From positions 29,237 through 93,236 of the forward strand of contig WJMK01000039.1 in the NCBI GenBank assembly GCA_014727975.1: a stretch of 64,000 bases of DNA. The letters are read 5' to 3'. The DNA comes from Candidatus Micrarchaeota archaeon (GTDB lineage Archaea > Micrarchaeota > Micrarchaeia > Anstonellales > Bilamarchaeaceae). The translations under genes were made by a program, and so were the position numbers. Below are positions 14,504-56,646 of this stretch, piece by piece (position 1 is the first letter of the stretch; each line of letters starts with the position of its first letter). The notes beneath the pieces are model-generated. The model ran no database searches, had not been told where the DNA came from, and saw only the letters and a program-made list of their open reading frames with translations.

Positions 14504-14574
14504 ACAAAAAAGAAAACAAAAACAGAAAACAAAGAAAAACAAAACGAAAACAAGAATGAAAAAAGGTGAAAACA

Positions 14575-17773: not shown

Positions 17774-17774
17774 T

Positions 17775-31096: not shown

Positions 31097-32311
31097 TCAT
31101 ACCAGTTTTGCAAATGCTGCGATGTTTATCTCGGTCCCAAAATACTTTGCAATCTCCCTTGCAAATGTGAATGTAACAAAAATATTGAACAGGGGGAGGA
31201 ATATGCTGAGCACGAACACAGTATAAATGACATCAGTATACAGGTCGAAGAAAGCAGTCAGCACCCAGGAGAGGGCGATTATGCCTGCAATTTGCTTTAC
31301 TGCACCCAGCAGGAAGATAGAATATATCGAAAGAGTGAGGAAGCCTCCGCTTCCGAGGAAATCAGAAACTATTGCCTCCACCCCGCTGCGCTCATGTAGA
31401 AGGCCGTAGTTGTAGCTATATGCCTGGTAGTTCATCACAAGCATCAGGGGGTAAACCATGAAAAAGGCAATTGAAAGCGCAATAAGCGCATTCCCCCCTC
31501 CCCTGGTTTGAGGGAAGGACTTAAGCAGAACCCCGATTGGGAGGAATATGCTCAGCATGTATTTCTTTATGAAACAGAGGATTATCAGGTTCACAATCCA
31601 CTCAGTCAATGCAAAGGAAAGAAGGGACGCCATTGTCCCGATTCCGTCCACAAGGGGCTTCAGGACTCCGCCGAGGTTGAAGTGGATGGCCATGTGGAGG
31701 GCCCCCCCAATGCGCAGCGGGGCGCTGTAAAGCATGTAGATAAGGGAGTTGAAAGCTCCGAGCCAAAAAATGTCATTGCTTATCTTCTGGACCATAAGCA
31801 TGGAATAATCCATTGCGGTCCCGAATACCCCATCAGGGTCTGTCCCTCCAAGTCCCATGATGTCGTATGCAATCAGGTAAAATGAAAAGAAAAGGGCAAC
31901 TATCAGGAGCGTGTGGATAAATTCAAAAATCTCCTGCTTTGACATTGCAACCATCTGGGGGGAATTGAAGAGGTTGCCTGCCATGTAGAAAATTGCAATC
32001 CCTATTCCGATTACCATAAGGGCGATTGCTGCGGGAATTGTGTAGTCCAGGGGGGAATGGACATCGCATGTGTTGCTTGTAACCCCCATGTCCTCCACTG
32101 TGGACTGCATCTTGTCCTTTGTTTTTTCTGCACCCTCCTGCACCATGGCTATCGGGTCCTGCCCTTCAGCTTCCGTATCTGAGTCTGTGTCTGTTGAAGC
32201 GTCTGCATCAGCATCTGCATCCAAATCAGGGCTCGCATCCACATCAATTCCCGGACTCGCAAATGCATAAAGGCAGAAAAGCAGCACCAGCAAAATAAAT
32301 TTCATTTTCAT
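31097..32311 (-). CDS. polytopic membrane protein, paralog 3 (signal peptide plus acidic D/T/S-rich N-terminal region)
   Basis: FLPIGVLLKSFPQTRGGGNALIALSIAFFMVYP; C-terminal FGTEINIAAFAKLV. Confidence 0.6.
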   Translation of the reverse strand: MKMKFILLVLLFCLYAFASPGIDVDASPDLDADADADASTDTDSDTEAEGQDPIAMVQEGAEKTKDKMQSTVEDMGVTSNTCDVHSPLDYTIPAAIALMVIGIGIAIFYMAGNLFNSPQMVAMSKQEIFEFIHTLLIVALFFSFYLIAYDIMGLGGTDPDGVFGTAMDYSMLMVQKISNDIFWLGAFNSLIYMLYSAPLRIGGALHMAIHFNLGGVLKPLVDGIGTMASLLSFALTEWIVNLIILCFIKKYMLSIFLPIGVLLKSFPQTRGGGNALIALSIAFFMVYPLMLVMNYQAYSYNYGLLHERSGVEAIVSDFLGSGGFLTLSIYSIFLLGAVKQIAGIIALSWVLTAFFDLYTDVIYTVFVLSIFLPLFNIFVTFTFAREIAKYFGTEINIAAFAKLV

Positions 32312-32321
32312 GCATTATCCC

Positions 32322-33584
32322 TCATATCAGGTGGGTAAGGCCCGCAAGCTCTATGTCTCCCCCGAATATTGGAGAAAGGCTGCGGATTGCTCCTACAGTG
32401 GAGAACACGGAAAGAAGGCCGAAGAACATGGAGAAAAACACGAACCTGGCCGTGGCGTCTATTACGCCCCCTGGTCCTATAAGTGAATCAATATAGCCGT
32501 CATCATCAACAATCTGCCCTGTGAAGTCTATGGAATAAAGGAACATGTCGAACCAGTCTGAAAGGAGGTCTGCTGCATCGGCTTCCCCAAAATCAGAAGT
32601 CTGCTGGCAGTAGTTTACAGTCTCCGGATAGAGCTCCTCTGTAAGGTATTTTTCATTGTCATCCGGCATATCCTGTCCGGGCACCTCCCCAGACACAATG
32701 GAATCTTCCTCCACAAAGCCTACTTTCCCGTAGAACTCCTCCGGGTCGAAATCCAGGGAGGTTATCACTTCGGGCATCCTCTTGCTTGGGTCTGGCTGTG
32801 AAGAATCATAATAAGGGCTCTGCATTGCTACGTTTTTGAAGATTATTGCACCCAGCACATAGAACATTGGAAAAATAAAAAACAGGGATATTCCTATCGC
32901 CATGAGCTGGCCACCAAGCCTCCGGCTGAAGGGGAAAGTGCGCAGTATCAGCCCAAGCATTACAAGAACAGGGTAAAGCGAATAATTTATGAAATTCAGG
33001 AAAAACTGCTGGAAGCGAACAATGACCATGGATTTCATGCCGAATTCAAACATGTAGGAATAGATAGAGGATGGAAGGGAGAATGCAGAGCCAAGCGGGG
33101 AATAGTTCACTGAGCCGCTTGTGTGCTCATGGAAATCAGCTGAAACGCCTATGTTCTGGAAAAAGGAATACCACATGTGGATTGAGAGGAGCTCATAGTT
33201 GAAGAGCTTTCCTTCTGAGTAAAGGGTATCCAGATAATAGCGGGCCATCCTCATGTGGCAGGGGAACTGGTTTTCAAAATCATTGAAATAAGGGTCAAAT
33301 GTAGGGCCGCATATCTGCGCCCCCAGGCCTGGGTCAGGGTATACCCCTTTGATCAAGCTCGCTGCTGCTTCTGTTGCAGTTGCAAGCACGAGCAGCACCA
33401 CCACGATTAATGCTGCTGAGTAAAATGCCTCAACCAGCTCCAGCTTTGCAAATGCAATCATCTTGTCGTTGTTAAGGAACTGCCCGAGCATATAGACAAG
33501 GGCAGCAAACACAATAGCAAGGGAAATTGCAAGAACCGCAATCATTTCCCATTGCTGCCAGAGGTTGCTAACTACATCAAGCAT
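32322..33584 (-). CDS. polytopic membrane protein, paralog 4 (large acidic loop insert)
   Basis: LGLILRTFPFSRRLGGQLMAIGISLFFIFP; C-terminal FGGDIELAGLTHLI. Confidence 0.6.
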   Translation of the reverse strand: MLDVVSNLWQQWEMIAVLAISLAIVFAALVYMLGQFLNNDKMIAFAKLELVEAFYSAALIVVVLLVLATATEAAASLIKGVYPDPGLGAQICGPTFDPYFNDFENQFPCHMRMARYYLDTLYSEGKLFNYELLSIHMWYSFFQNIGVSADFHEHTSGSVNYSPLGSAFSLPSSIYSYMFEFGMKSMVIVRFQQFFLNFINYSLYPVLVMLGLILRTFPFSRRLGGQLMAIGISLFFIFPMFYVLGAIIFKNVAMQSPYYDSSQPDPSKRMPEVITSLDFDPEEFYGKVGFVEEDSIVSGEVPGQDMPDDNEKYLTEELYPETVNYCQQTSDFGEADAADLLSDWFDMFLYSIDFTGQIVDDDGYIDSLIGPGGVIDATARFVFFSMFFGLLSVFSTVGAIRSLSPIFGGDIELAGLTHLI

Positions 33585-33585
33585 G

Positions 33586-34518
33586 CTATCCCTTCCCTGT
33601 AATAAACTTGGTCACTGCGTTTACAAACGCGATTGTCAGCGTCATGGTAAGGGCAGGCAGGAAAAGGCCCACCAGGGAGATTTGGGATATGCGGTCCATA
33701 AATGGCACAAGCGCCATGAAGGAGAGGGGCTGAAAAATTGGCAAAAACCACGAGGAGAAATAAGTATCCGTAGTTGAGGTTGCAACCCCAAGTGCATCGT
33801 CCATGCTATTGAAATAGTTGGTTTCCTCTATGTTGGGAGTATACGAATCCGCCCAGCCATGTAGTTGCCACATATCGCTAAGCGCGATATAGTTGATGGA
33901 ATAAAGCAGGGGAAAAAAGCACTGGAAGGCTATGGCTAACACTATCAGGTACACCCCTGCATCACGGGTGGGCGGGAAAAACCTCAATATGATTCCTGCA
34001 GGAAGCAGGTAGTAATAGGCAACTGCATCAATAAGGTAGAAAAGTATCACCTGGACGCTCATTGTCCCGTAAAGGGCAGTAAAGCTGAATACGAGCATGC
34101 GGACGATGGAGATTAGGGGGTCAAGGCCGGGAACAGCTTTTGTAATCCAGTTCCATGGACCCGGCCCCATCCTGTATTCAACTGCATTAAAGTAAGTAAG
34201 GAGCACTTCCATCCTTACCAGCTTAAGGTAAATTGGAAGGATTCCTTCATTTATTACTATGTTGAGGAACTCTATGGATATATCTATGGGGTTGCCTCCT
34301 GCAAGTGCAGTGGATGCCATGTCTGCAAAGTTCCATGCAGCAAATGCAATCACAAGGATTATTGCTGAAAGAAAAAGCTGGCTGAGCTCAATCTTGGCAT
34401 ATGCCTCAAGCTGCGGGCGCTTAAGTGCATAAGAGAGCATGAAAACAATCGAGATGTACCCTATAAGGGCAAGCACGGTTATTCCGATTATTCCCATGTA
34501 TGATTCAAGGTCCATCAC
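33586..34518 (-). CDS. polytopic membrane protein, paralog 5 (shortest; lacks the C-terminal tail motif)
   Basis: LLPAGIILRFFPPTRDAGVYLIVLAIAFQCFFP; after TM1, PQLEAYAKIELSQLF. Confidence 0.6.
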   Translation of the reverse strand: MMDLESYMGIIGITVLALIGYISIVFMLSYALKRPQLEAYAKIELSQLFLSAIILVIAFAAWNFADMASTALAGGNPIDISIEFLNIVINEGILPIYLKLVRMEVLLTYFNAVEYRMGPGPWNWITKAVPGLDPLISIVRMLVFSFTALYGTMSVQVILFYLIDAVAYYYLLPAGIILRFFPPTRDAGVYLIVLAIAFQCFFPLLYSINYIALSDMWQLHGWADSYTPNIEETNYFNSMDDALGVATSTTDTYFSSWFLPIFQPLSFMALVPFMDRISQISLVGLFLPALTMTLTIAFVNAVTKFITGKG

Positions 34519-35753
34519 ACCACCTTAGTGAGCCCGAGGATTTCAAGCTCTCCGCCAAGGGCTGCCGCTATAGCGCGGTATCCTGTAATCGTTATTATTA
34601 TCTCTATCACGAAAGTAACTGCAATCATTACTGAAATCTGTGCAAGGCCCTGGAATCTCTCAAGGACCATGAAATAGAAGAAATATGCAAAAGTTGTGGG
34701 CTTTATTATGTCTATAAATGTATGAAGGGATACTTTCCCCCCCACAAACTCCCATAAATCAGAAAGCAGGCCCCCGAGCAGCCCCTGTGCAGAGCCTATC
34801 AGTCCTGAAACCTGGTACCAGTTGCTTTCATAGGGAAGCGGATTGCTGAGGTCGGTTGAAAGCTGCTCCCTGATCTCCGCATTTGACTGGTTGAGATAAA
34901 AAAGCGACTCGTTGATGTCTGCCCCCTCTGGCTCACATATTCCGAGGGGTGTTGGGGCGATTGGGATATATGCAGGATGGGCCTGGGGCCCGAACATCAG
35001 GTAATGGGAAAAGAGGATAGACGCAGGGAATATAAAGAAGCCTGCAAAGGAGATTGCAATGAGGCTGGAGCCTGTTGTACGGGTAAAGGGAAGCGAGCGC
35101 AAAAACAGCCCAAGGGGGAGCAGGAAGCCAGGGGTTATGTCAAAAAGGAATTCGAGGAGCTGCTGCCTTCCCACAACAAGCCCCACAAGCATACCTATGC
35201 TCTCGATTATGCTTACCACCGCATTGCTGAGCATGGCCATTCCGCCATATGGCGAAAAGCTGAGCCACTTTACTGCAAGGATAGGGGTTCCCATGGAAAG
35301 GCTGAACCCAATACTGGAAAGGACCCCGATAAATATTTCAAGGGAAAGAAACCCCACATATGCGCTAAGGATCTCATAGAAAACAGAATCAAGGGAATAG
35401 AATGCAAGCGTCACCAGGGAACAGGACTCTCCTCCGCAGATTGCAGCTGAGACGATTCCGCTTGTTGCCGCATATACTGCAAACCAGGATGCTGCGATAA
35501 AAACAGAAATCATCCATTGGGAAAGCTCCTCCTTTGCAAAAGCGTCAATCTGGGGGGAGCCTAGGAACTTCCCAAGCAGGTAGTACAGAATAACTATGAA
35601 CCCTGCAGAAAGCAGGGCAATCGGGAGAAGCTCTGCAACAAAGGGGTGGGACACTGCTTCCCCAAGCCGCAAAACATCGGTGGATTGGAGCAGAGGGGGT
35701 GCGTACATCATGATAGGCGTCCCGGTCATACGGGTATTTGTTACGACTAACAA
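34515..35753 (-). CDS. polytopic membrane protein, paralog 6 (first gene of the array)
   Basis: LLPLGLFLRSLPFTRTTGSSLIAISFAGFFIFP; after TM1, SPQIDAFAKEELSQW; C-terminal LGGELEILGLTKVV. Confidence 0.6.
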   Translation of the reverse strand: MLVVTNTRMTGTPIMMYAPPLLQSTDVLRLGEAVSHPFVAELLPIALLSAGFIVILYYLLGKFLGSPQIDAFAKEELSQWMISVFIAASWFAVYAATSGIVSAAICGGESCSLVTLAFYSLDSVFYEILSAYVGFLSLEIFIGVLSSIGFSLSMGTPILAVKWLSFSPYGGMAMLSNAVVSIIESIGMLVGLVVGRQQLLEFLFDITPGFLLPLGLFLRSLPFTRTTGSSLIAISFAGFFIFPASILFSHYLMFGPQAHPAYIPIAPTPLGICEPEGADINESLFYLNQSNAEIREQLSTDLSNPLPYESNWYQVSGLIGSAQGLLGGLLSDLWEFVGGKVSLHTFIDIIKPTTFAYFFYFMVLERFQGLAQISVMIAVTFVIEIIITITGYRAIAAALGGELEILGLTKVV

Positions 35754-40714: not shown

Positions 40715-41755
40715 ATGAAGATTAAGGGGAAGGCTGTACGCGCAAAGAAAAGTAAGGGGCAGAGAGTGAAGAATGAGCTTAAGGCGCTTGGGCTAATTGA
40801 TGAGGGGCGCATGGTTGGAAGTGATGAGGATTATGTTTATGTTCCGGTTTTGGAGAGGGTTCCGGATAAATACGAAGTGGTGGAGAAAGAGCTTGAAACA
40901 AGGGAAAAAAGGAAGGGGTTCAGGGAACTCCTCGTAGAGCGTTTCGGAGAGAAGGGAGCCAAGGGGGTTTTGTCCTCATATGATGTGGTTGGGGATATCG
41001 CGATTGTGCAGGTTCCGGAGGGGCTTCGGGCGCATGAGGCAGAAGTTGGGGAACTGTTGTTGCGCGGAGAAAAAAAAGTAAATGCAGTATGGAAAAAGGC
41101 AGGGGGAAGGGAAGGGGAATTCCGGGTTACTAAGCTTATGCACCTTGCAGGGGAGGAAAGGAGCGAAACCGAGTATGTGGAGAATGGAGTGCGGATGAAG
41201 CTGGATGTAAGGAAAGTTTATTTTTCCCCTAGGCTTAGCCATGAGAGAAAGCGCGTCCTTGGTGAGGTGAAGGAAGGGGAAAACGTGCTTGTGCTTTTTG
41301 CGGGGGTGGGCCCGTTTGCGCTGGAAATAGGAAAGGCCTGTCCTCATGCAAAGGTGGTTGGGGTAGAGCTGAATCCTGAAGCGATAAAATATTTTGAAGA
41401 GAACATTGTGCTGAATAAACTGGGGAATGTAGAGGCGGTTCTGGGGGATGCGCAGAAGGCTGCGGAGGGGGAGTTTTCAGGATGGGCAGACCGGATTGCA
41501 ATGCCGCTTCCGATGGGGGCAGAAGAGTTCCTTGGGGCTGCATTTTCTGCTGCAAAGCCAGGATGCATTGTGCATTTCTACAGGATGGTGGACAGGAAGG
41601 GAGGAGTAGAAGTGCTAAAGGAAAGGATTAGAAAAGCGGCGGAGAAAGCAGGAAGGGAAGTGGAGTTTATTTTTGAGAAGGAAGTAAGGCCTTATTCTGC
41701 GGCAACCATGCAAATTGTAATTGATTTCAGAACCAGGCAATCAGACAACCCCTAG
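40715..41755 (+). CDS. tRNA (guanine37-N1)-methyltransferase Trm5 / Taw2 family (Met-10+ like)
   Basis: VLVLFAGVGPFALEIG...VVGVELNPEA matches the archaeal Trm5b/Taw2 SAM-binding core. Confidence 0.8.
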   Translation: MKIKGKAVRAKKSKGQRVKNELKALGLIDEGRMVGSDEDYVYVPVLERVPDKYEVVEKELETREKRKGFRELLVERFGEKGAKGVLSSYDVVGDIAIVQVPEGLRAHEAEVGELLLRGEKKVNAVWKKAGGREGEFRVTKLMHLAGEERSETEYVENGVRMKLDVRKVYFSPRLSHERKRVLGEVKEGENVLVLFAGVGPFALEIGKACPHAKVVGVELNPEAIKYFEENIVLNKLGNVEAVLGDAQKAAEGEFSGWADRIAMPLPMGAEEFLGAAFSAAKPGCIVHFYRMVDRKGGVEVLKERIRKAAEKAGREVEFIFEKEVRPYSAATMQIVIDFRTRQSDNP

Positions 41756-42568
41756 GAGCAGTGCTGCAATCGTGAACATGAATATCCCTGCAGTTATTGG
41801 GGGGAGCGCGGGAAGGACTGTATGGTGCTTCCAGGCAATGAAAAGGACGAACAGGGTGCCAAGAGTGGCGCCTGCAAGCGCAAAAAGAGAGAGAAGGGGG
41901 CTGATAGTGTAGGCAGCAACTTCAACCATTATGGGAAGGGAAAGGTCACCTGTGCCTAAATCCAGGCGGGATTTCTTCCCCTTTGGTAGTGTTTTTTCAG
42001 CGGAGATGGTAAATGCCATGTCCCTCTGGACTATCTCGTTTGCCATTGTAACCATGTGCTTGGTTTTGAACACTGAGATATAGTCATAAATTGCCAGGAA
42101 GAAAAGGAAAACAAGCGAGGTTGTAAAACCAAAGGTAAAGCCAAAAACTGCTCCGGCACCTGCACTGGATATGATGGCTGCGATATTTTTGAGGCGGTGG
42201 TGGAAGAGCTGCTTGAGGACAGAAAAAATCATTGCGATCAGTATGGCAACTACCATGGACTCAAGAGTGGCATGGAACAGGGGCTTAATCAGGGAATAGA
42301 AAAAAACTGAAGAGGTTGCTGAAATTACTGCAAGCTCAAGAAGGGTGAATAAAAGGGAGATATGGAGCCGGTGCAGGATTATGAATAAAAGAGCGCCGAA
42401 AAGGACTGCAAAAATGAAATATAGCAGGGAGGGGGCTCCGGTTTCCACTGTCATTAGGCTGCTTATATATTCATTTGAGCGTGCGTCTTCAATAATATAT
42501 GATCCGGCATACATTCCCATAAATTGGGTTGCCAGGAACATTATGAGCAGAGTAAAGTAAAGGCGCAT
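41741..42568 (-). CDS. presenilin/signal-peptide-peptidase-like intramembrane aspartyl protease (A22 family)
   Basis: YD motif (LAIYDYISV), GxGD motif (LGTGDLSLP) and a PAL-like LPALPP motif in successive TM segments. Confidence 0.65.
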   Translation of the reverse strand: MRLYFTLLIMFLATQFMGMYAGSYIIEDARSNEYISSLMTVETGAPSLLYFIFAVLFGALLFIILHRLHISLLFTLLELAVISATSSVFFYSLIKPLFHATLESMVVAILIAMIFSVLKQLFHHRLKNIAAIISSAGAGAVFGFTFGFTTSLVFLFFLAIYDYISVFKTKHMVTMANEIVQRDMAFTISAEKTLPKGKKSRLDLGTGDLSLPIMVEVAAYTISPLLSLFALAGATLGTLFVLFIAWKHHTVLPALPPITAGIFMFTIAALLLGVV

Positions 42569-47038: not shown

Positions 47039-47092
47039 TTTGCTGCTTAATTGCACTGAAAAGGAGGAAATAAAAGAAAAAGGAATAAGGAA

Positions 47093-47623
47093 CTAGATTG
47101 TGTCCTCGCCTTCAACAACAACTGAGATAACGTTTGCCTGTGCTTCGTGCTTTATGTTTTCGCTGAGGTCATCCTCGTAGTTGTACCAGACAATCAATTT
47201 TCCGCGGAATTCCACGTTTGGCTGCATCTGTATCTGGTCGCCATCTGAGTCAATACAGTCTATGTTGAAGAAATCATCTGAGCTTCCGGTTGGGATTGTT
47301 TGGTCCAGCTCAAATTCGCTTGTGAGCTCAACCTCTGTTGCCTGCGCATTTGTACAGACAATTCCCTTGATTTCCACAGTCTTTCCTAGCTTGTTCCAGA
47401 TACGAACATTCATGCTTACGTCGCCTCCATCAGAATAAATCTGCGGATTCGGCTCGCTGCAGGAGAATCCCTGCTGCTGGAACAAGCACAGCTCAGGAGC
47501 ACTGAACGGGTTCAAATAAATGAGCGCGGCAATCACGATTACGATTGCGAGGAGCGCCCACCCATAAGTCATCAGGTATTCCATCGCCGCTTGGCCTTTT
47601 CTGTAATTTTTCATCATCATCAC
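47093..47623 (-). CDS. archaeal type IV pilin (class III signal peptide)
   Basis: MMMMKNYRKG|QAAMEYLMTYGWALLAIVIVIAALIYL. Confidence 0.7.
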   Translation of the reverse strand: MMMMKNYRKGQAAMEYLMTYGWALLAIVIVIAALIYLNPFSAPELCLFQQQGFSCSEPNPQIYSDGGDVSMNVRIWNKLGKTVEIKGIVCTNAQATEVELTSEFELDQTIPTGSSDDFFNIDCIDSDGDQIQMQPNVEFRGKLIVWYNYEDDLSENIKHEAQANVISVVVEGEDTI

Positions 47624-48694
47624 CTAGAAGAACATACTTGCAAAGAGCGAGTCCAGGAATGAACCCACTACAAAGTAAATTATGTAGGATAGTGCCAGCA
47701 GGAACGGGAAGTACTTCATTCCCTGGGTCTTTGAGCCCGCCCTTATTATTCCAAGCAGGAGCGAGGAAATAAGGGAGGTTATAAACACCAGCGCCATGCT
47801 GAACCAAAAGAACTCATCAGTGCTTACTGAGGGGGATGTAGGCGTTACCAGGAAGCTTGCAGGCATCCCTCCTGCTGCCATGTCCACGCCTCCTGCAGGC
47901 ATGTATGCAAATGCCATTGAGAGAACGCTTATGAGGTTTGTTGAAACAGAGAAGAGGAAAGGTGCCCCTATTGTAGCTGCAAATACCAGGAAGATTACAT
48001 ATACAAGGAGGGTTGCCGCAATATCCTTTTTATGCATTGCAACGTCCCTTGCATCCTGTGAGGTTTCCTCAAGTATTTCTGCGATTTCCCCTCCGGTTGC
48101 AAGGGCCTGCTTGAGGAGGAGAATTGTCCTGTGGAGAACGCGGGAATTGAAGCGCATGTCCAGGCGGTCCAGGGATTTCTCGATTGGCTCACCGGAAAAG
48201 GCGCTCTTGATTACGCGCTTCACTTCTACGGAAAACAGCCCGTATTCAGGCTTTGCAGCATACCACATTGCCTGGTCCAGGGTCATTCCTGAGCGGACGT
48301 TCCCTGCCACCAGGGTAAGGAAATCCGGGAGGACCTCCTCCACTGCATTCTTCCTCGCTTCAGTCTGGAGCAGGATTACTGACCAGACAAGCACATAGGT
48401 TAAGAGGAATGTAACTACGAATGCGGCAACGAAGCTGATTATGATGGATACAATGTCCGGGAGTATGAAGGAAGTGCCGGCAATTGCATAAATGAACTTG
48501 GGGATGGCTGAGGTGTTCAGGAAAACAAGGAACAGCAAGAGGCCCACAAGGACGTTCAGCACTATGAAGAATCCCATGAAAGACTCTGCAGGAACCATGA
48601 TGCCTGCCCCTGCAAGGGACTTTTCAATAGCCCTTATGCGCTTCCTTGAAAGAAGCCGCCCGATTGTTTCGTAAAAACCCATGAGTGCGCTCAT
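47624..48694 (-). CDS. type IV pilus assembly platform protein, single T2SSF domain (TadC-like)
   Basis: T2SSF domain LTLVAGNVRSGMTLDQAMWYAA...LKQALATGGEIAEILE flanked by TM helices. Confidence 0.75.
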   Translation of the reverse strand: MSALMGFYETIGRLLSRKRIRAIEKSLAGAGIMVPAESFMGFFIVLNVLVGLLLFLVFLNTSAIPKFIYAIAGTSFILPDIVSIIISFVAAFVVTFLLTYVLVWSVILLQTEARKNAVEEVLPDFLTLVAGNVRSGMTLDQAMWYAAKPEYGLFSVEVKRVIKSAFSGEPIEKSLDRLDMRFNSRVLHRTILLLKQALATGGEIAEILEETSQDARDVAMHKKDIAATLLVYVIFLVFAATIGAPFLFSVSTNLISVLSMAFAYMPAGGVDMAAGGMPASFLVTPTSPSVSTDEFFWFSMALVFITSLISSLLLGIIRAGSKTQGMKYFPFLLALSYIIYFVVGSFLDSLFASMFF

Positions 48695-48703
48695 AATAAT
48701 CCC

Positions 48704-49600
48704 TCAGAATGCATACCTCGGCCTGGAAGTCTCCACCATTGACAGGAACATGAACTGTATTACCCCTACCATAAACAGGAAGAGGAGCAATACGGGCGCA
48801 TCGAGAGCAAATCTCCCGGAACCGATGAATGAGAAAAGTATTATTGCAAAAGCAAGCCCCAGAGAAGGGAAAATAATGCCGAAAATCATGTAGAACATGA
48901 TGAGGGGGTTGAGCTTCTGCCCATAGGACTTCAGCTCGATTATCTGCTCCTTGAATACCTGGTTCAGGACCACTTCAAGGGAATCCGCAACATCCGCACC
49001 TGATCCGACTGCGTTTGCAAGCTGTACCATAATCCTGCGGAATGCAGGTGAAGGGTTGGTTTGCACTACCTCCCTTATTGCCTGGCCTATGGGAGTGCCC
49101 AGGGTAACCTTTTCAACAATCCTGTTGAATTCCTTGCTTACTTCACCGTAGCCGCGGGAAACACCGACCATTGCATCGAAAAGGGGCATCCCTGAGCGGA
49201 GCCCTATAAGCAGGTGCCTCACTGCAAAAACAAGCTCATAGTCTATTGCCTTCTTCCGCTTCAGCACCATTACCGAAGGATACATCATATAATAGAAAAA
49301 GGAAAAAATCATGTATACAAAGAACAGGAGCACCACAAAGAGGGTGGCCATCTGGACCGCTGCCATATCCAAGACTATGAAAGTGAGTATGGAGAGGGCA
49401 AGCGCTGAAAAGAATGCGGAAAAAATCACGCGGTCCATGAAGGTTTCCGGTGAATCCTTCATGCTTGCAAGAACCATCTTCTTCCTGAGAGTTGGGAAAT
49501 AAGGGATTATGAATTCAGAAAGAGAGCGGATTGGGCCTCTCTTTCCAGAACCCCTCGCAGGGAGGGCAACAGGAGTCACCTTTTTCTTCGGGCTTGCCAT
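48704..49600 (-). CDS. type IV pilus assembly platform protein, single T2SSF domain (TadB-like)
   Basis: VRHLLIGLRSGMPLFDAMVGVS...VQLANAVGSGADVADSLEVV. Confidence 0.75.
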   Translation of the reverse strand: MASPKKKVTPVALPARGSGKRGPIRSLSEFIIPYFPTLRKKMVLASMKDSPETFMDRVIFSAFFSALALSILTFIVLDMAAVQMATLFVVLLFFVYMIFSFFYYMMYPSVMVLKRKKAIDYELVFAVRHLLIGLRSGMPLFDAMVGVSRGYGEVSKEFNRIVEKVTLGTPIGQAIREVVQTNPSPAFRRIMVQLANAVGSGADVADSLEVVLNQVFKEQIIELKSYGQKLNPLIMFYMIFGIIFPSLGLAFAIILFSFIGSGRFALDAPVLLLFLFMVGVIQFMFLSMVETSRPRYAF

Positions 49601-49624
49601 ATCTTCACCATTAAATATATATTA

Positions 49625-51274
49625 CTACTTTCGACCAAAACGTTTATTTATGGTATCCTCATCGAGGCCTGATTCCTTTGCCATAAGCTTCCTTGCAGTG
49701 AGGAGTGCCTCAGAGCGTTCAATTTCCCCCCTTGCGTACTTGTTGTATGTGCGCGAATCCTTTGCCTGCAGGAGGTTGAAAAGGGCCTCATCCGAAGCTC
49801 CGGCTACCTGTGCAAGCTTCATTGCTTTGGGGTCTCCTGCCTTTTCAAGCAGGAGCTCTCGTTTTGTTTCAATCTGTGAGTGGATTGCCTCCCCTATTGA
49901 ATTCTTGAGGGCGGAAAAGTCATGTGAATATTCATCTTTAAGTGAGGACCTGAGCTTTTCAGAATCCGGAGTGGACTGGCCCTTTGCCTTGAGTTTTGCA
50001 AGCTCTGCACTGTGCTTTGCAGTAAGGAATGTGTGGTATTTCTCTATTATCTCCATAAGGGCATGCTCAAGCTCCACCATGTTTTTGGAAAATGCCTCCA
50101 GTGCAGGGCCCCTGTGCTTGACTGCCCGCTGGGCCTCAAAAGCAGAGAGGGCCTGCTTTGCGTTTTTTTCATAGATGGACTGGATGCGGCTCTTTGCTTC
50201 CTTCAGCTCAAGCTTCTGCTCATTTGAAAGGGCAGTGAAAAGGGCGCCTTTTGGAAGTCCTCCTGCTTCTGCCTTTCCCCCTTTTCCCTTAAGGAGTTCC
50301 TTGAGTGTGACAATTTCTTTCTTGATCTCTGCGCGCCTGTCCTGGGAACGCTCTTTGAAAAGTTCCCTTGTGAGTTCAAGCATGCGCTTTTTTGTGTCTT
50401 CAACATCAACTTTCTTGGTTTTCTTTCCGGTCATCTGGGCGCCGAGCTGCGCCTCCAGCCTGTTTAGGCTCTTCTCTGCTTCTTTAATAGGGGATTTGCT
50501 GAGTGCTTTTGGCTGCACAACATCTAGTACAGGCCCTTCTGTTTCAGGGGGACCGGAAACAATTTCCTCCTTTGCCGGTTCATAAGGAGCTGGCTCTTCT
50601 GCAGGAAGAGGCTCCTCCGGCTTCTCCGGAACTGGCATTATCTTCTTTTCCGGGGCAGGCCTGAGCTTTGGCTCAGGAGAAGGCTTGATCTTTTCTTCAG
50701 CTTCAGGAGGCTTCTTTTCCGGGAGCGGGGGAACTTCCAGTTCTGCCTCTTTCTCCTTTTCTTCAGGTTCCGGGGGAAGCGTCTCCTGCATTTTTGGAGT
50801 TTCCGGGAGCTCGGGCAGCCTGGCTGCTGCCTCCTCTGCTTTTCTCCTTTCCAGCTCAGCAGGAGAAGGGACCTTTGGTTCAGGGGGGGCCTCCCCAGGT
50901 TCCTCAGCAGCTTCTGCTTCAGGAGCAGGTGCAGGGACTTTGGCGGCCTCCCTTGCGCTCTCTACGCTTATCTTTTTCATCTCTTTTTCTACTTCGGACG
51001 CCTCCTTCTGGACATGTGTGGGGGCAGGGGTTGCAGGCTCCGCAGGCTCAACCTTTTCTGCCCCGAACATCCCAATGTCCATCCTGGATGCCTTTATTAT
51101 TTTGTCCATCCGGTTGTACTGGTTTATAATATCCACATAATCCATCTCATGGATATCCGGGGGAGAAAGCTCAAGCGAGCGCTTTACTTTCTTCTCCTTT
51201 ATCTTTGCAGGGGAGTATTCAGATGCTGAATCCTCCACCCGGGAAACTTCACTTATGGCGTCCCTGAAATCCAT
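49625..51274 (-). CDS. coiled-coil protein with a Pro/Glu/Lys-rich repeat region (pilus-locus accessory)
   Basis: 549 aa; central PEPK/EPEK low-complexity region; C-terminal helical region; operonic between the ATPase and the TadB-like gene. Confidence 0.5.
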   Translation of the reverse strand: MDFRDAISEVSRVEDSASEYSPAKIKEKKVKRSLELSPPDIHEMDYVDIINQYNRMDKIIKASRMDIGMFGAEKVEPAEPATPAPTHVQKEASEVEKEMKKISVESAREAAKVPAPAPEAEAAEEPGEAPPEPKVPSPAELERRKAEEAAARLPELPETPKMQETLPPEPEEKEKEAELEVPPLPEKKPPEAEEKIKPSPEPKLRPAPEKKIMPVPEKPEEPLPAEEPAPYEPAKEEIVSGPPETEGPVLDVVQPKALSKSPIKEAEKSLNRLEAQLGAQMTGKKTKKVDVEDTKKRMLELTRELFKERSQDRRAEIKKEIVTLKELLKGKGGKAEAGGLPKGALFTALSNEQKLELKEAKSRIQSIYEKNAKQALSAFEAQRAVKHRGPALEAFSKNMVELEHALMEIIEKYHTFLTAKHSAELAKLKAKGQSTPDSEKLRSSLKDEYSHDFSALKNSIGEAIHSQIETKRELLLEKAGDPKAMKLAQVAGASDEALFNLLQAKDSRTYNKYARGEIERSEALLTARKLMAKESGLDEDTINKRFGRK

Positions 51275-51284
51275 CCGGATACCC

Positions 51285-53201
51285 TCAGAACTCCCATGCC
51301 TTGTTCTTCTTCACAGACGAAAGCACTTCCTCAGGTGTCTGGTAGTAATTGGAGACAATTGAGCCGACCTCGTTTACTGCCTCGTAGCCGTGCTTCACCA
51401 TCCAGTTGAGCACAGAAACCTTCTCTGCAACATCCTGGTCTATTTCTTTGGCAGTAAGGCCGGAATAAAGCTCGATTGTTTTTGCAATGCTGTCCAGCTT
51501 CCCTGATTTTACAGTGACATCGCGCTTGGAGTCCCACCTGTAAATCATGTTCAGGTCACCCTGGTTCTGCACTTCTGCAAACTCAAGGGTCCTGCGGATA
51601 TTGAGCCTCCTCTGCCTGTACTGCACAACAATTCCTGCGAGCGCGTCCAGGTTCTCTTCAGGCACATTGATTGGCGGATTCACCAGCCTGCTGATTGTCT
51701 GGGATGCATTGTCCGCATGCAGGGTTGCGTATACGGAGTGCCCTGTGTGCATTGCCTCGAAAAGGACCTCGGCTTCCTTCTGCCTCCTTACTTCTCCGAC
51801 AACAATGCGGTCCGGCCTCTGCCTCAGTGCATTAACCATGAGGTTGAGCATTGAGACTTCTCCTTTCCCTTCAGGGTTGGGCTCCCTTGTAACCATGGGT
51901 ACCCAGTGCAGGAATGATGGAAGGGTAAGTTCCCTTGTGTCCTCAATGCTGATTATGCGCTGGTTTGCAGGAATAAGGCCTGCCATTGCATTCAGGAAAG
52001 ACGTTTTACCGCTTCCTGTACCTCCGGAAACAAGGAGGGAAAGCTCGCTCTGCACGCAAAGCCAGATTGTGGCTGCAACTTCAGGGCTTATTGTCTTGCT
52101 CCTGATCAGGTTGGTAATTGTCCAGGGGTTCCTGGAGAACTTCCTGATTGTCATGGTGTTCCCATAGTTGGAAACAGGGAACAGGGTTGCGTTTACACGG
52201 TCCCCGTTGGGGAGGTGTGCATCCAGGAGCGGGCTCAGTATGTTTATCTGGCGCCCTACTTTGCGCGCGACGAGTGCGGCATAATCATAGATGCGCTCTT
52301 CGTTCTTTAGGCGCAGGTTGGTCTTGCACCAGCCGTATTTCTTGTGGTAAACCCATACCGGGTCCCTTGAGTTATTTACTACAACTTCTTCCAGGAACTC
52401 ATCGTGGAGCGGAGTTTCCAGCTCGCCCATCCCAAGAGTATTCTGGATAAGGTAGGATGCAAGTATTTTCCTCTTCTCCGGGGGAAGCTGGGGGAAGTTC
52501 CTGCCCAGGACCCTCATGGCCGAATCCTGGAACTTTGCCTTCACCATCTCCTGCTTCTTCGGGTCAAGGATTTCAGTAATGTCAAGCTTTACATCGGAAA
52601 TGAGCTCTGCGCGGAGCTTGGTTTCCAGAAGGAGCTTGGTCCCCCCTGCAATTCCAGGGATTGAGATGCTGTAGACAGGCACAAAGTCTTCCTTTTGGAC
52701 TATGGCGACTTCCACTGGAATTGATTCGCTCAAGAAGGTGTAGGAATCCAGGACCTTGGTCTTTTTTGGCTCCCCTTCACGCTCAGGCAGGGGCTCGAAT
52801 TCCTGCTCTTTTTCAACAACTGCTGCAACCTGCATTTCTTCCGGGACCTCTCCTGGCTCTCCTTCTCCCCCTTCAGGCTCTTCAGGCTCTCCGGAACCGC
52901 CCATGGCTCTGGGCTTTTCCTCTTCCTCCCCGGGCTCTTCGGGTTCCTCCTCTTCTTCGTATTCTTCCTCCTCAAGCTCTTCCTCTTCCTCAGGGATTTC
53001 CTCTTCTATTTTCTCTGGCTCTTCTTTTGGTTTGGGCTTGGGGGGTTTCTTTTCCTCATCTTTTTTTGAACGCGAGTTCTGCCTTGCGGCAGCAGCCTTC
53101 TGGGATTCTTTTATCCTCTTAACAATGTCCCTTACCGTCTTTTTGGACGGGGCTTTCTTTTTCGAACCCTTTTTTCCGGATGATTTTTTTGGTTTTGCCA
53201 T
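51285..53201 (-). CDS. type IV pilus/secretion ATPase (FlaI/TadA/VirB11 superfamily) with a disordered N-terminal extension
   Basis: Walker A LLVSGGTGSGKTSFLNAMAGLIP; Asp box and His box; N-terminal ~130 aa of K/E-rich low complexity. Confidence 0.9.
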   Translation of the reverse strand: MAKPKKSSGKKGSKKKAPSKKTVRDIVKRIKESQKAAAARQNSRSKKDEEKKPPKPKPKEEPEKIEEEIPEEEEELEEEEYEEEEEPEEPGEEEEKPRAMGGSGEPEEPEGGEGEPGEVPEEMQVAAVVEKEQEFEPLPEREGEPKKTKVLDSYTFLSESIPVEVAIVQKEDFVPVYSISIPGIAGGTKLLLETKLRAELISDVKLDITEILDPKKQEMVKAKFQDSAMRVLGRNFPQLPPEKRKILASYLIQNTLGMGELETPLHDEFLEEVVVNNSRDPVWVYHKKYGWCKTNLRLKNEERIYDYAALVARKVGRQINILSPLLDAHLPNGDRVNATLFPVSNYGNTMTIRKFSRNPWTITNLIRSKTISPEVAATIWLCVQSELSLLVSGGTGSGKTSFLNAMAGLIPANQRIISIEDTRELTLPSFLHWVPMVTREPNPEGKGEVSMLNLMVNALRQRPDRIVVGEVRRQKEAEVLFEAMHTGHSVYATLHADNASQTISRLVNPPINVPEENLDALAGIVVQYRQRRLNIRRTLEFAEVQNQGDLNMIYRWDSKRDVTVKSGKLDSIAKTIELYSGLTAKEIDQDVAEKVSVLNWMVKHGYEAVNEVGSIVSNYYQTPEEVLSSVKKNKAWEF

Positions 53202-53211
53202 GGATTCACCA

Positions 53212-54936
53212 TCAGTCGCTCTCCCATAGTTTACGTATGAGTCCTTTTAATTCCTTTCTCTTGCGCTCGAATTCTTCCTGCTCTTTGGAAGTCAGGGAGA
53301 CTTTGTCTTTTACTTCTTTTTCCTTTTTGCCTTCCCCTTTCCCTTCCTCTTTGGAGGGGGCGGCCTCTCCGCCCCTAAGGGCGATGAGCTTTGCTTCCTT
53401 GGAAAGGAGCTTTATGTTCTTCTCGATCATGCCCGAGCGGGCATTAAGGTCCGCAATCAGAGAGCGGATTTTCTGTAGTTCTTTTTTCTTGGTCTTGAGT
53501 TGCGAAACAAGCTCCTTTGCTTCCTTGAGGGACTTCGGGGTTGTTTTTTCAGCCAGTTCCTTTGTCTTCTTGGCGGATTCCTCCCTTGTGGCCTTAAGTT
53601 CTTTTTTTAGCTGGGAGGTTTCCTCCCTTATTTTTGCAAGCTGGGCAAGGTAGGCATCTATTGCCATCTTGGTCTTGGACTTGATTTTCTGGAAAGTTGC
53701 GTAATTTGCTGTTTCCTCTTCTATGGAAGCAAGGATTTCGTCTGCATCTTCTGTAAGCTGGCTCCTTGCCGCTTCAATCTCTTCCTTCATTTCCTCGAGC
53801 TCTTCAATAAGCTCACCGATTGATAGGACATTGCCCGGGACCCCTGCAAGGGAGGACTCTATTTTCTTGAAATCCTTTGAGATGCGCTCTTCGTCCTTTT
53901 CAAGGGCTTCCAGCTTGGAGAGGATTTCTTTTTTTGTGGGCACATTCTCCAGCACTTCCTGGGCAATCCCTATCGTTTCAGAGTACTGGTCAGCTACTGC
54001 AAGGTCGTCCACTATCTGTTTTTCTAGCTCGGGCAGCTCTTTTTTCAGTGCCTCTATGTGCTCATATTCTGACTTGAGCCTATTGCGGGTCTTCTCCGCA
54101 CTCTTTGAAAGCTCGCTTATGTGGGAAACTGCATCCTGGATTGTGTCTGCGTTTGCCTTGAATTCTGAAATCATGGAGCGGAGGTATTCTGACTCCTCAT
54201 GCATTTTCTGGAAATCGTCGCTGAGCGAGTCAAACTCATCCTTCACTTCCCCTATTTCCACTTCCTCCTTTGGGGCATTCTTCTTTATCTCGTCAACCCT
54301 GGAAACAAGCTCGTTGAACTGCCTGTCCAGGCCATTCATGTGCTCTTTCGCTGTTTCCACCTTGCTGAGCTTCCTGTCAAGGTCTTTTTCCTCAAAAGTC
54401 TTTCCGGTTTTTTCAAGCTGGAGCTCCAGGCCCTTTATGGAGCCCTCTATTTCGCTGAGCTTCTCGCTAAGGGATTTTACTTTGTCCATGGACGCCTTGG
54501 AAACTGCTGTTTTCTTTTCCTTTGCAGCCTCTATCTGCCGGGAAAGCTCCTCAACCTTTGCAAAATCCTCTTCGAACTTCTGTGAGAGGTTCTCGATTGC
54601 TTCTGTATACTCGCGGAGGTCCCTTTTTCCGGTTTCCTGTATTTCATCGAGCTTCTGGATCTCGCCTTCAACCTTGGTTTTCCTTTTCCGGAAAACCTGC
54701 TTTTCCTTTTCCATCTGCTCAGGGGTTGCGGGCACCCAGACAAAGTAGACTTTTGTGAGCTGATAATCTATGCGGATTATGCCTTCCTCTTCCAGTATGT
54801 GTGCCCAATCCTCGACAGTTGTTTGGGGGAGGTTGAGGAGCTTGGAAGCCATTGCAAGGTCGATTTTCTTCTTCTCTTTTATAAGCCGTATGAGTGAATC
54901 TACTCCAGTGCTGATGAGGAGGTCCTCCATTTCCAT
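53212..54936 (-). CDS. winged-HTH-like N-terminal module plus long coiled-coil protein (first gene of the pilus operon)
   Basis: N-terminus ISTGVDSLIRLIKEKKKIDLAMASKLLNLPQTTVEDWAHILEEEGIIRIDY; ~450 aa of heptad-rich K/E sequence. Confidence 0.5.
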   Translation of the reverse strand: MEMEDLLISTGVDSLIRLIKEKKKIDLAMASKLLNLPQTTVEDWAHILEEEGIIRIDYQLTKVYFVWVPATPEQMEKEKQVFRKRKTKVEGEIQKLDEIQETGKRDLREYTEAIENLSQKFEEDFAKVEELSRQIEAAKEKKTAVSKASMDKVKSLSEKLSEIEGSIKGLELQLEKTGKTFEEKDLDRKLSKVETAKEHMNGLDRQFNELVSRVDEIKKNAPKEEVEIGEVKDEFDSLSDDFQKMHEESEYLRSMISEFKANADTIQDAVSHISELSKSAEKTRNRLKSEYEHIEALKKELPELEKQIVDDLAVADQYSETIGIAQEVLENVPTKKEILSKLEALEKDEERISKDFKKIESSLAGVPGNVLSIGELIEELEEMKEEIEAARSQLTEDADEILASIEEETANYATFQKIKSKTKMAIDAYLAQLAKIREETSQLKKELKATREESAKKTKELAEKTTPKSLKEAKELVSQLKTKKKELQKIRSLIADLNARSGMIEKNIKLLSKEAKLIALRGGEAAPSKEEGKGEGKKEKEVKDKVSLTSKEQEEFERKRKELKGLIRKLWESD

Positions 54937-54975: not shown

Positions 54976-56646
54976 ATGGAGAATTTCTGCACGAAAAGAA
55001 TATGCTTAATAAAGATTGTGGAAAAATTAAGTGCAATGGCGGAAGATGCAGAGCTTGGCAAGGAGATACGGAAGGTTGAGAAGAACTCACTCCAGAAATT
55101 CAAGAACCAGAATAAGGTTCTCAAGAAGTTCGGGAAGGTGGGGCTCAAAGTCTACCGCTCCATACGGAAAAAGGGAATCAGCATAGAGGAGCTGATGGGG
55201 AAGGCCAAGCTTGAGCAGGAAAAGCTTTTCGAAATTCTGATGTTCCTCAAGGAAAAAGGCATGATTGAAACTGTTGTGGAGGCAGGGCCCGGGAAGATTG
55301 AGGTTGAGGAGGAGGCTGCAATGGCCAAGCCTGAAGGGCCGATAAAAGCAAGGCCAAAGGGGAAGAAGAAAAAGAAGGGCGTGAAAGAAGAGAAAGGAGC
55401 TTTGGAGAAGAAAGGAGAAGAGGAAGAAAAGAGGAAGCCTGGGAAAAAGGTGAAAAAGGAAAGGCAGCCTGCCCCTGCAACTATCGCCCCTGAGGAAGAG
55501 ACAGAAGAAGGAGAAGAGGGGAAGATTGAACCAGTGCGCGAAGAAGCCCCTGCAATTGCGCCCGAGGCTGAAATAAAGCCTGAGGAAGAAGAGGAACTAA
55601 CCCCTGAGGAGGAATTTGGCATTGGAAAAGGCCCAGAAGAGAAAGAAGTGGAGATTCCTGAGGTTGAAGAGGAAGGGGGCATAGTCCCGCTTGAGCTTAA
55701 GGAAGAGGAAGAAGAGGAGCCTGAGCAGGAAGAGGAGGAAGGGCCGGAAAAGCCCGAAGAGCCTGAGGAAGAGAGCTACGATGACGAAATTTCCCCCTCA
55801 GAACGCAAAGAAGAGGAAGAAGAGCCCGAGGAGGAGGATGAGGACATCTTCCTTACCCCGGGGGAGAAGAAAATCAAGGCAAAATACGGGCAGGTGGGAA
55901 TTGACGTTTATAATCTTATTGACGGCCAAAGGACTGCAGAGCAGATAATGAAAAGCACCGGGGTAACTGAAACCAAGCTTATTGAAATGCTGGATTTCAT
56001 GGAGAAAAAAGGCATAATCAAGCTTGAGCACCCCGGAACAAAAAGAAAGAAGAAAAGAAGGGCCCCAAAAATGCCAAAGGTAAAGGAAGTGGGCTTTGCG
56101 CCAATGCTTGAGGAAGGCGTGTCCCCGGAAAAACCGCTTGGAGGGGAACTGGGGAAGGAATTTACCCTTGATGTGCCTTCAAAGTTGCCGGGCAACATGC
56201 TCAGGGAAATACAGATGAAGGCAAACCTCATGATTAAATTCAAGAAGCCGGGGGCAAAGGCATTTGAGCTAATGAATGGGAGCAGGGATGCGGTGGAGAT
56301 TGCACTCAAGACCGGGCTCCCGCTTTATAGAGTATATAAGGTCATGGCATACCTGCAGAGGGAGGGAATGGTTAAGCTTGAGCCCTCCACCCGGGAAGAG
56401 ATTAAAAGAAAGTACGGGGAAGACGGTTATTCCGTGTACAAAAGATACGGGAGGGACGGGGTAATGCTCTACCAGCTTATCGGGAAGGACATGGATTTGA
56501 AGCAGATGGCAGACCTGACTTCAGAAGACAAGAAGAGGGTTGTTGAAATCTTCATGTTCATCCACCGGCTCCTCGGGATTGAGCTCCCGATTGATGAGGA
56601 TGTTCTTCTTGAGAGGATACAATCCGCCGGGCCTGTCCCTAAATAA
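54976..56646 (+). CDS. protein with four repeats of a ~55-aa wHTH-like module separated by E-rich linkers
   Basis: Repeats KFGKVGLKVYRSI...; KYGQVGIDVYNLIDGQRTAEQIMK...; AKAFELMNGSRDAVEIAL...; KYGEDGYSVYKRYGRDGVMLYQLI... Confidence 0.5.
   Translation: MENFCTKRICLIKIVEKLSAMAEDAELGKEIRKVEKNSLQKFKNQNKVLKKFGKVGLKVYRSIRKKGISIEELMGKAKLEQEKLFEILMFLKEKGMIETVVEAGPGKIEVEEEAAMAKPEGPIKARPKGKKKKKGVKEEKGALEKKGEEEEKRKPGKKVKKERQPAPATIAPEEETEEGEEGKIEPVREEAPAIAPEAEIKPEEEEELTPEEEFGIGKGPEEKEVEIPEVEEEGGIVPLELKEEEEEEPEQEEEEGPEKPEEPEEESYDDEISPSERKEEEEEPEEEDEDIFLTPGEKKIKAKYGQVGIDVYNLIDGQRTAEQIMKSTGVTETKLIEMLDFMEKKGIIKLEHPGTKRKKKRRAPKMPKVKEVGFAPMLEEGVSPEKPLGGELGKEFTLDVPSKLPGNMLREIQMKANLMIKFKKPGAKAFELMNGSRDAVEIALKTGLPLYRVYKVMAYLQREGMVKLEPSTREEIKRKYGEDGYSVYKRYGRDGVMLYQLIGKDMDLKQMADLTSEDKKRVVEIFMFIHRLLGIELPIDEDVLLERIQSAGPVPK

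Follow-up and report, generated by a model that had tools for sequence, protein, structure and literature searches.

Gene content of the operon

A 64-kb stretch of contig WJMK01000039.1 from a Candidatus Micrarchaeota archaeon was analysed (the window, to which all coordinates refer), and it harbors a minus-strand operon at 47093-54936 which very probably represents a chromosomal, vertically inherited type IV pilus (T4P) assembly operon belonging to the superfamily of type IV filaments (TFF) in this DPANN lineage. The operon comprises six open reading frames (ORFs) with intergenic gaps of 10, 10, 24, 9 and 0 nt, in the order CC574, secretion ATPase, PEK549, N-half platform protein (TadN298), C-half platform protein (TadC356) and pilin, as shown in Table 1. 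Shine-Dalgarno (SD)-like motifs (GGTG or GAGGG) precede four of the five internal starts, and the start codon of the pilin gene immediately follows the stop codon of TadC. A preliminary description of positions 47093-53201 had listed, on the minus strand, an ATPase with the motif GGTGSGKT, a P/E/K-rich protein, two proteins with a single T2SSF domain each and a pilin with the motif RKG↓QAAMEY (the arrow marks the cleavage site); all of these were present, and the 5' end of the operon lies one gene beyond that stretch, with CC574 as the first gene. At the other end, apgM, encoded on the opposite strand, ends at 47038 and is convergent with the operon.

Table 1. Coordinates of the operon, its functional elements and associated genes in the window
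Feature	Coordinates	Strand	Basis or detail
CC574, 574 aa, winged-helix-like N-domain (~70 aa) and long coiled coil, no transmembrane segment	53212-54936	minus	ORF
Secretion ATPase (VirB11/FlaI/PilB superfamily), 638 aa	51285-53201	minus	Pfam T2SSE, E=5e-38
ATPase residues 1-147, K-rich basic block then E/P-rich acidic block	52761-53201	minus	composition; predicted disordered
ATPase Walker A, GGTGSGKT, residues 393-400	52002-52025	minus	motif alignment
ATPase Asp box	51927-51950	minus	motif intact
ATPase Walker B	51789-51818	minus	motif intact
ATPase His box	51714-51746	minus	motif intact
PEK549, 549 aa	49625-51274	minus	N-domain 51080-51274, linker ~50525-51049, C-domain 49628-50524
TadN298, N-half platform, 298 aa, one T2SSF, 4 predicted transmembrane segments	48704-49600	minus	Pfam T2SSF, 2.8e-18
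TadN/TadC junction: TGA, 9 nt (GGGATTATT), ATG	48695-48706	minus	in frame; GAGGG SD-like motif overlaps stop
TadC356, C-half platform, 356 aa, one T2SSF, ~7 predicted transmembrane segments	47624-48694	minus	Pfam T2SSF, 1.3e-15
Class III-signal (type IV) pilin, 176 aa, cleavage predicted after G10 (RKG↓QAAMEY)	47093-47623	minus	motif and hydrophobic helix
Putative terminator, T-rich convergent spacer 3' of pilin stop	47039-47092	n/a	suggested by position and composition
TrmB-like winged-helix repeat protein with acidic linkers, candidate regulator	54976-56646	plus	Pfam TrmB, 1.2e-10
Five class III-signal-like genes, 235, 582, 158, 182 and 164 aa	17279-21195	minus	motifs and hydrophobic helix in each

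The secretion ATPase

The four motifs of the ATPase all align with those of afGspE, FlaI and CpaF. Among the NCBIfam models, FlaI was the best for this protein (274 bits, equivalog cut-off 550), the TadA family TIGR03819 reached 200 bits (cut-off 373) and the model of the bindosome ATPase BasE gave a weak full-length match of 148 bits (cut-off 1000). The sequence matches in the PDB were afGspE (2OAP, 229 bits), FlaI (201 bits) and CpaF (171 bits), and the alignment to 2OAP extends through the C-terminal domain. Over 266 shared core residues the window ATPase is 40.8% identical to afGspE, 41.1% to FlaI and 39.5% to CpaF, with identities of 46.1% between afGspE and FlaI, 35.7% between CpaF and afGspE and 36.9% between CpaF and FlaI, and under the four-point condition these values pair the window ATPase with CpaF against afGspE with FlaI. 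The combination of GGTGSGKT with a two-residue insertion, 'PNPEG', is likewise found in the window ATPase and CpaF and not in FlaI or afGspE.

When 1.8 billion cluster representatives were searched with HMMER, 2667 ATPase relatives were recovered at E<=1e-30, most of the representatives being metagenomic proteins. A neighbour-joining (NJ) tree with 200 bootstraps and three labelled references was constructed from 95 core sequences, with 91 drawn from the top 150 representatives and the Micrarchaeota orthologs. The window ATPase was placed in a clade of 50 sequences together with Micrarchaeota, other metagenomic archaea and one Altiarchaeota sequence (198/200), apart from the CpaF clade, which contains the CpaF of PDB 8RKD and the named bacterial CpaF/TadA sequences (196/200), and apart from the clade of FlaI and afGspE (198/200). 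On this sequence-based placement the ATPase belongs to a distinct clade, which is neither CpaF/TadA nor FlaI/afGspE. The Pfam family PilB3_C, a marker of System 2, was not matched by the C-terminus of the window ATPase, and relatives about 50% identical to it match this family at or near the threshold. Some of the distant relatives are labelled 'flagellar protein FlaI' by JGI.

The N-terminal extension of the ATPase, described earlier as about 130 K/E-rich residues, was recovered as residues 1 to ~147, which contain 40-53% K+E and 8-14% hydrophobic residues; the weight first given to it was not upheld. An extension of ~142-151 aa is observed in the seven nearest loci (L001-L007, >=85% identity), one distant locus (L054) has a 141-aa extension that is not K/E-rich, most other Micrarchaeota orthologs carry 15-50 aa (median 28.5), and the range across the wider family is 0 to ~570 aa. 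Precedents exist, as NTD0 of CpaF (residues 1-79) is predicted to be disordered, is dispensable for extension, affects retraction and varies in length among homologs (PMC11300603), and N- and C-terminal additions specific to subsystems have been described for these ATPases (Sivabalasarma and Albers 2026 preprint, 10.64898/2026.04.22.720090). The K/E-rich tail is an elaboration specific to the lineage, and its precedents are clear. Charged low-complexity stretches also occur elsewhere in the window, in a DnaG/primase-like protein (14566-16017), in the tail of an antiporter (24364-25755), in the winged helix-turn-helix (wHTH) protein and in PEK549.

Inteins were observed in many ATPase orthologs (P0049, P0057, P0059 and about 20 more of the best 150), which reach lengths of about 1000-1240 aa. 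According to Pfam analysis of two orthologs, the insertion in the ATPase core consists of an Intein_splicing domain and a LAGLIDADG homing endonuclease; the insertion site in these two, and the query break-points (~residues 231-275) in the others, fall in the region from Walker A to the Asp box. The window copy lacks an intein. In addition, KaiC-like (PF06745) ATPase genes reminiscent of ArlH/FlaH adjoin two distant ATPase relatives, L083 on the Altiarchaeota contig JAPKXP010000117.1, with a fused 579-aa platform, and L081 on a JGI metagenome contig, with a split pair.

The split membrane platform

The two platform proteins correspond to the successive halves of the two-domain platforms of other systems. 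TadN298 matches residues 12-248 of ArlJ (555 aa) and 36-250 of UpsF (484 aa), and TadC356 matches residues 232-460 of UpsF. Against the fused 579-aa Altiarchaeota platform, TadN298 aligned to residues 9-277 (4e-35, with 1e-8 for the C half) and TadC356 to residues 336-577 (6e-24, with 1e-7 for the N half), and the same N-half/C-half correspondence was observed with the 711-aa PilC-like proteins of Haloferax. TadN and TadC are paralogous to each other (24% identity, 5e-9), and no sequence relatives of either were found in the PDB.

The platform genes are separate in all 62 related Micrarchaeota loci that cover the junction. The first gene ends with TGA in 35 loci, TAG in 22 and TAA in 5, and 33 junctions are in frame and 29 out of frame, with gaps mostly <=12 nt and some overlaps of 1-4 nt. 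Because the genes are separate at 62/62 loci, with all three stop codons and mixed frames, the split is a true one and not the product of a nonsense mutation or recoding; judged from the alignments, the pair is an old, collinear fission with tight translational coupling.

The pair had at first been regarded as unusual for Archaea, which does not stand, as such pairs are already documented. Two tadC genes are reported in clade 1, many clade 2 loci, clade 4B and some Sulfolobales loci (Makarova 2016, PMC4858521); single-domain platform pairs in Epd-like and Tad systems (Denise 2019, PMC6668835); two platform genes in System 1 (methanogens, DPANN) and in DPANN 4A loci (Sivabalasarma and Albers 2026 preprint); and, in the micrarchaeon Mia14, a locus composed of ATPase, one unlisted gene, TadC and TadC, besides a second system (Golyshina 2017, PMC5498576, Suppl. 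Table 2).

Different platform arrangements were also observed among the relatives of the ATPase. Non-Micrarchaeota members of its clade carry an ATPase followed by T2SSF proteins of ~285 and ~335 aa, a member of the FlaI/afGspE clade has a split pair as well, and one Altiarchaeota relative (40% identity) has a fused platform, so that fission possibly took place more than once. In the single bacterial CpaF locus compared, the first platform gene is C-half-like (28 vs 3, 25 vs 3.5 and 23 vs 3.5 bits) and the second is ambiguous, in line with Denise 2019, where the first gene of the Tad pair is C-half-like; the window order, N half then C half, is the reverse of the Tad order as seen in that one locus.

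The pilin, pilin-like genes and prepilin processing

The pilin precursor begins with MMMMKNYRKG↓QAAMEY, and the predicted mature form has ~166 aa. Across 37 pilin homologs no variation was seen at G10, Q11, E15-W22 and four cysteines, the N-terminus KG↓Q[AS]AMEYLMTYGWA is nearly unchanged over most loci, and a few homologs are named 'UPF0333 family' by JGI. The AlphaFold2 (AF2) model (pLDDT 89.9) exhibits an N-terminal helix (residues 12-37) followed by a beta-sandwich, in which the four invariant cysteines lie, and its top Foldseek matches in the PDB, 8FK7, 8Q30 and 6W8U (prob 0.99-1.0), are the archaeal type IV pilins of Pyrobaculum calidifontis, S. acidocaldarius (Aap) and P. arsenaticum.

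The pilin is the only one within the operon, as was first described, and the window as a whole contains five more class III-signal-like genes at 17279-21195, 26 kb from the ATPase operon. Their motifs are SKA↓F, RKG↓F, RKG↓QAATE, RKG↓QVAIE and MKG↓Q, with Q at +1 in three of the five, and two of the proteins are weakly similar to the N-terminus of the operon pilin (2e-4). No significant Pfam or NCBIfam family was found for the five, one of which has a sub-threshold DUF7287 match. Separate clusters of pilin-like genes have been described for many archaeal systems (Makarova 2016), and the five products could plausibly serve this machine in trans, as minor pilins or as an adhesin.

A presenilin-type signal-peptide peptidase (SPP) gene lies at 41741-42568 on the minus strand (PF06550, 3e-20), adjoining MCM and 4.5 kb from the operon. 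Presenilin-type SPPs and prepilin peptidases are both GxGD-class intramembrane proteases. The SPP was considered as a stand-in prepilin peptidase and set aside, as nothing ties it to pilin processing.

Accessory proteins and a divergent regulator candidate

CC574 and PEK549 are the two operon products outside the known pilus families. For CC574, no Pfam or NCBIfam family was found, only sub-threshold SMC/Rad50-like coiled-coil matches; a gap of 10 nt, which includes GGTGA, separates its stop from the ATG of the ATPase, and in about half of 80 Micrarchaeota loci it is the gene immediately upstream of the ATPase. PEK549, for which no Pfam or NCBIfam match was obtained either, has conserved N- and C-domains joined by a P/E/K/A-rich, predicted disordered linker (23% P, 25% E and 11% K over residues 76-250). 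A middle gene between ATPase and platform is found in nearly all loci, with products from 114 to 1334 aa and a hypervariable linker, and hidden Markov models of the PEK549 N-domain (about 64-65 aa) and C-domain (~300 aa) detected the middle gene in 51 and 39 loci, respectively. The 35 PEK549 homologs are unnamed or 'hypothetical'; those with archaeal names all come from Micrarchaeota lineages, two are labelled as 'bacterium' metagenome-assembled genomes (MAGs), and no such middle gene was present in the non-Micrarchaeota loci compared. In the AF2 model (pLDDT 72.7), helices at 256-546 form an all-alpha C-domain with values of ~90, residues 155-245 fall below 50, and no significant fold match was found in the PDB. 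No transmembrane segment is predicted in either protein, and from their operon position both probably act as a cytoplasmic scaffold or regulator.

The TrmB-like gene at 54976-56646 is divergent from CC574, and the gene pair is syntenic in many Micrarchaeota loci; by position and synteny its product is a candidate regulator.

Conservation and genomic context

The operon pilin is 100% identical to NCBI GF412_04515, which is encoded on a 152-kb contig of a MAG labelled 'Candidatus Micrarchaeota archaeon'; an exact look-up of the window ATPase in an assembly index gave no entry. Of 162 loci, 80, almost all of them in MAGs of Micrarchaeota (DPANN), have an ATPase core with 62-94% identity to that of the window, and tblastn of the window proteins against those loci repeatedly recovered CC574, ATPase, middle gene, N half, C half and pilin in this order, with the convergent apgM and then MCM also flanking the pilus operon in the closer relatives. 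The ATPase core (62-94%) is better conserved across the same loci than MCM (55-62% in distant loci). The base composition (GC) of the operon is the same as that of its flanks, and the housekeeping neighbours in the window include MCM, Cgi121, ribosomal protein S8e, MetRS and LeuRS. The recurring synteny, the matching composition and the housekeeping neighbours therefore indicate core-genome inheritance and not a mobile island.

Assignment of the operon and alternative explanations

A four-motif secretion ATPase, adjoining T2SSF platforms and a class III-signal pilin with a globular beta domain are hallmarks of archaeal T4P/TFF systems, and these three are present in the operon. The assignment to an archaeal T4P (TFF) assembly locus made in the preliminary description was therefore retained, and the label 'Tad-like' attached to it was dropped, since the clade of the window ATPase excludes CpaF/TadA, the platform order differs from that of the one bacterial locus compared, and no TadZ (MinD/ParA-like), Flp pilin (~50-80 aa), TadV or RcpA secretin was found in the operon or window.

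Several observations weigh against the T4P assignment. The fold matches of the pilin are weak in E-value (3e-3 to 2e-2) and TM-score (~0.3-0.4), and Pfam Class_IIIsignal (PF04021) is not significant on the pilin (E=0.3, 11.5 bits, cut-off 23.7). As the earlier account had also noted, no Peptidase_A24 or other prepilin peptidase was found among the window ORFs with >=3 predicted transmembrane segments, most of which were scanned against Pfam; 24364-25755 and the tandem paralog 31097-32311 (the latter compared with NCBIfam only) lay outside that scan. A MinD/FleN/TadZ or KaiC/FlaH-type gene was likewise not found in the window. The ATPase tree is distance-based, rests on a 258-column core with three labelled references and cannot be mapped to the published clade numbering. 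The functions proposed for CC574 and PEK549 are conjectural, and the expression of the operon and the formation of a filament in the organism are predictions from the genes.

Among the known systems, the Mia14 locus MIA14_0170-0177 ('Ca. Mancarchaeum acidiphilum', Micrarchaeota) is similar to the window in gene layout, with ATPase, one gene, TadC and TadC followed by a secreted/pilin component, and its single FlaK-like peptidase is encoded away from the pilus locus (Golyshina 2017). Unlike the window operon, it is described in that account without a wHTH/coiled-coil gene, a conserved middle gene or a disordered ATPase tail. Mia14 also bears on another explanation, in which the locus belongs to the Epd-like or 'System 1' lineage, an archaeal sister or ancestor of bacterial Tad (T4c), and the split goes back to the same ancient fission as TadB/TadC. 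We regard this as possible, though rather unlikely. The Mia14 ATPase was called 'CpaF family' and the Mia14 locus put in the clade-1 group (Golyshina 2017), and DPANN are among the System 1 holders in the 2026 preprint. The GGTGSGKT and 'PNPEG' signature common to the window ATPase and CpaF and the four-point pairing fit the same explanation, as do Q+1, E+5 and Y+6 of the pilin, which recur in the DUF361/Epd and Flp motifs, and the 'UPF0333 family' names of some homologs. The Epd/System 1 of Methanococcus maripaludis and relatives, with an ATPase of arCOG01819 (clade 1), has two single-T2SSF genes and a pilin with Q+1/E+5, and bacterial Tad/Flp (T4c) systems share with the window the split pair, one ATPase without a retraction ATPase, GGTGSGKT and a disordered ATPase N-terminus (CpaF NTD0).

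On the other hand, an NJ bootstrap of 99% supports a clade for the window ATPase from which CpaF and the bacterial sequences named TadA/CpaF are excluded. In its C-terminal domain the window ATPase belongs to the archaeal afGspE/PilB3 type and differs from bacterial Tad, as seen from the alignment with afGspE and the System 2 marker in its 50%-identical relatives. The mature operon pilin, with 166 aa and a large globular domain, differs from the Epd/Flp-type pilins of ~50-70 aa (~70 aa for the Epd major pilin). EppA, the 9-TM peptidase that processes the DUF361/Class_IIIsignal (QxSxExxxL) pilins of Epd-like systems, FleN/MinD and a KaiC-like gene were not found in the window, and the locus does not have a set of about 11 genes such as that of Epd/System 1. 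The Tad pair starts with TadB, which is C-half-like, and the fused platform of the 40%-identical Altiarchaeota relative suggests that fission may be repeated. A joint reading, in which a Micrarchaeota-specific cytoplasmic module of PEK549-type protein and CC574, without counterpart among the T4P systems described so far, serves the distinct ATPase clade and the platform fission is maybe independent of TadB/TadC, is offered tentatively and is doubtful as a whole.

Other archaeal systems differ from the window operon in further respects. In System 2 (PilB3/PilC3 of Haloferax volcanii) and Archaeoglobus fulgidus, from which afGspE (2OAP) is the best solved-structure match to the window ATPase, afGspE groups with FlaI and not with the window ATPase, and the Haloferax PilC-type platforms are single proteins of ~700 aa instead of a pair; many euryarchaeal systems resemble the window in having pilin-like genes in a separate cluster.

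A different explanation of the T4P-type genes is that the machine builds a short pseudopilus or similar device for protein secretion, for substrate capture (bindosome-like) or for DNA or cytoplasmic exchange with a host. This appears improbable. The BasE match covers the full ATPase at a score far under the cut-off, the operon contains neither DNA-processing genes nor any for substrate-binding proteins with a class III signal, and the pilin model resembles filament-forming archaeal pilins, while DPANN biology, the speculation on DNA/metabolite exchange through T4P systems (Golyshina 2017) and the conservation of the ATPase core above that of MCM, which suggests an essential role, are in its favour.

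An archaellum (motility) locus with archaellins encoded elsewhere is hardly conceivable. Archaellum ATPases and platforms are of superfamilies homologous to those of the window and archaellins carry class III signal peptides too, FlaI is the best NCBIfam model and the JGI name of some distant relatives; nevertheless, the score is about half of the equivalog threshold, FlaI falls in another clade of the tree, ArlJ is a single two-domain protein instead of a split platform, FlaH, FlaF/G, FlaC/D/E/X and archaellin were not found in the operon or window, and archaella are lacking in Mia14 and most DPANN (Golyshina 2017). That the two T2SSF ORFs are a single FlaJ/PilC-like gene interrupted through nonsense mutation or sequencing error, or else joined by programmed read-through of TGA, is suggested by their shared frame with TGA and three codons between them, and is practically eliminated by the 62 loci described above, by the SD-like motif at, and the ATG after, the stop of the first platform gene, and by two-gene platforms in relatives outside Micrarchaeota.

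Proposed mechanism and significance

For the T4P operon, comparison with homologous T4P machines characterised in archaea and bacteria suggests that the pilin precursor would be inserted in the membrane and cleaved after Gly10 (KG↓Q) by a class III signal peptidase presumably encoded elsewhere in the genome. The hexameric ATPase would dock on the platform of TadN and TadC, an obligate and translationally coupled pair of N half and C half, and ATP hydrolysis would drive the stepwise addition of pilin N-terminal helices at the filament base. The pilin-like proteins of the 17-21 kb cluster may prime or tip the filament, and the ATPase or the platform is probably the binding partner of CC574 and PEK549. 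With the filament, cells of this ectosymbiotic lineage would most likely attach to surfaces or to their host; such an adhesion role is in keeping with cultivated DPANN being ectosymbionts and with the reported pili-like connections of ARMAN cells (Golyshina 2017).

T4P are prime candidates for the attachment and interaction of ultrasmall DPANN archaea with their hosts, and key T4P components are common to many Micrarchaea (Golyshina 2017). Because it is phylum-wide and MCM is less conserved than the core of its ATPase, the operon is a sensible target in the few cultivable Micrarchaeota. The literature already contains split platforms, T4P loci of DPANN and ATPases with variable N-termini, and the locus opens no new question; its specialist interest is modest and lies in the two unannotated cytoplasmic partners and in whether the platform was split once or repeatedly. 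The two conserved, Micrarchaeota-specific cytoplasmic partners and a possible platform fission independent of Tad are modestly new.

Other features of the window

Six tandem paralogous membrane proteins of 349, 382, 404, 420, 310 and 412 aa are encoded on the minus strand at 28899-35753, each with 5-7 predicted transmembrane segments, an 'FPxTRxxGG' motif and a conserved C-terminal tail (G-E/D-I/L ... L-x-K/R-L/V-I/V); no significant Pfam or NCBIfam match was obtained for those that were scanned. A protein of 1425 aa (8800-13077, minus strand), with no Pfam or NCBIfam match, has one N-terminal and two C-terminal predicted transmembrane segments and is possibly a surface or S-layer-type protein.

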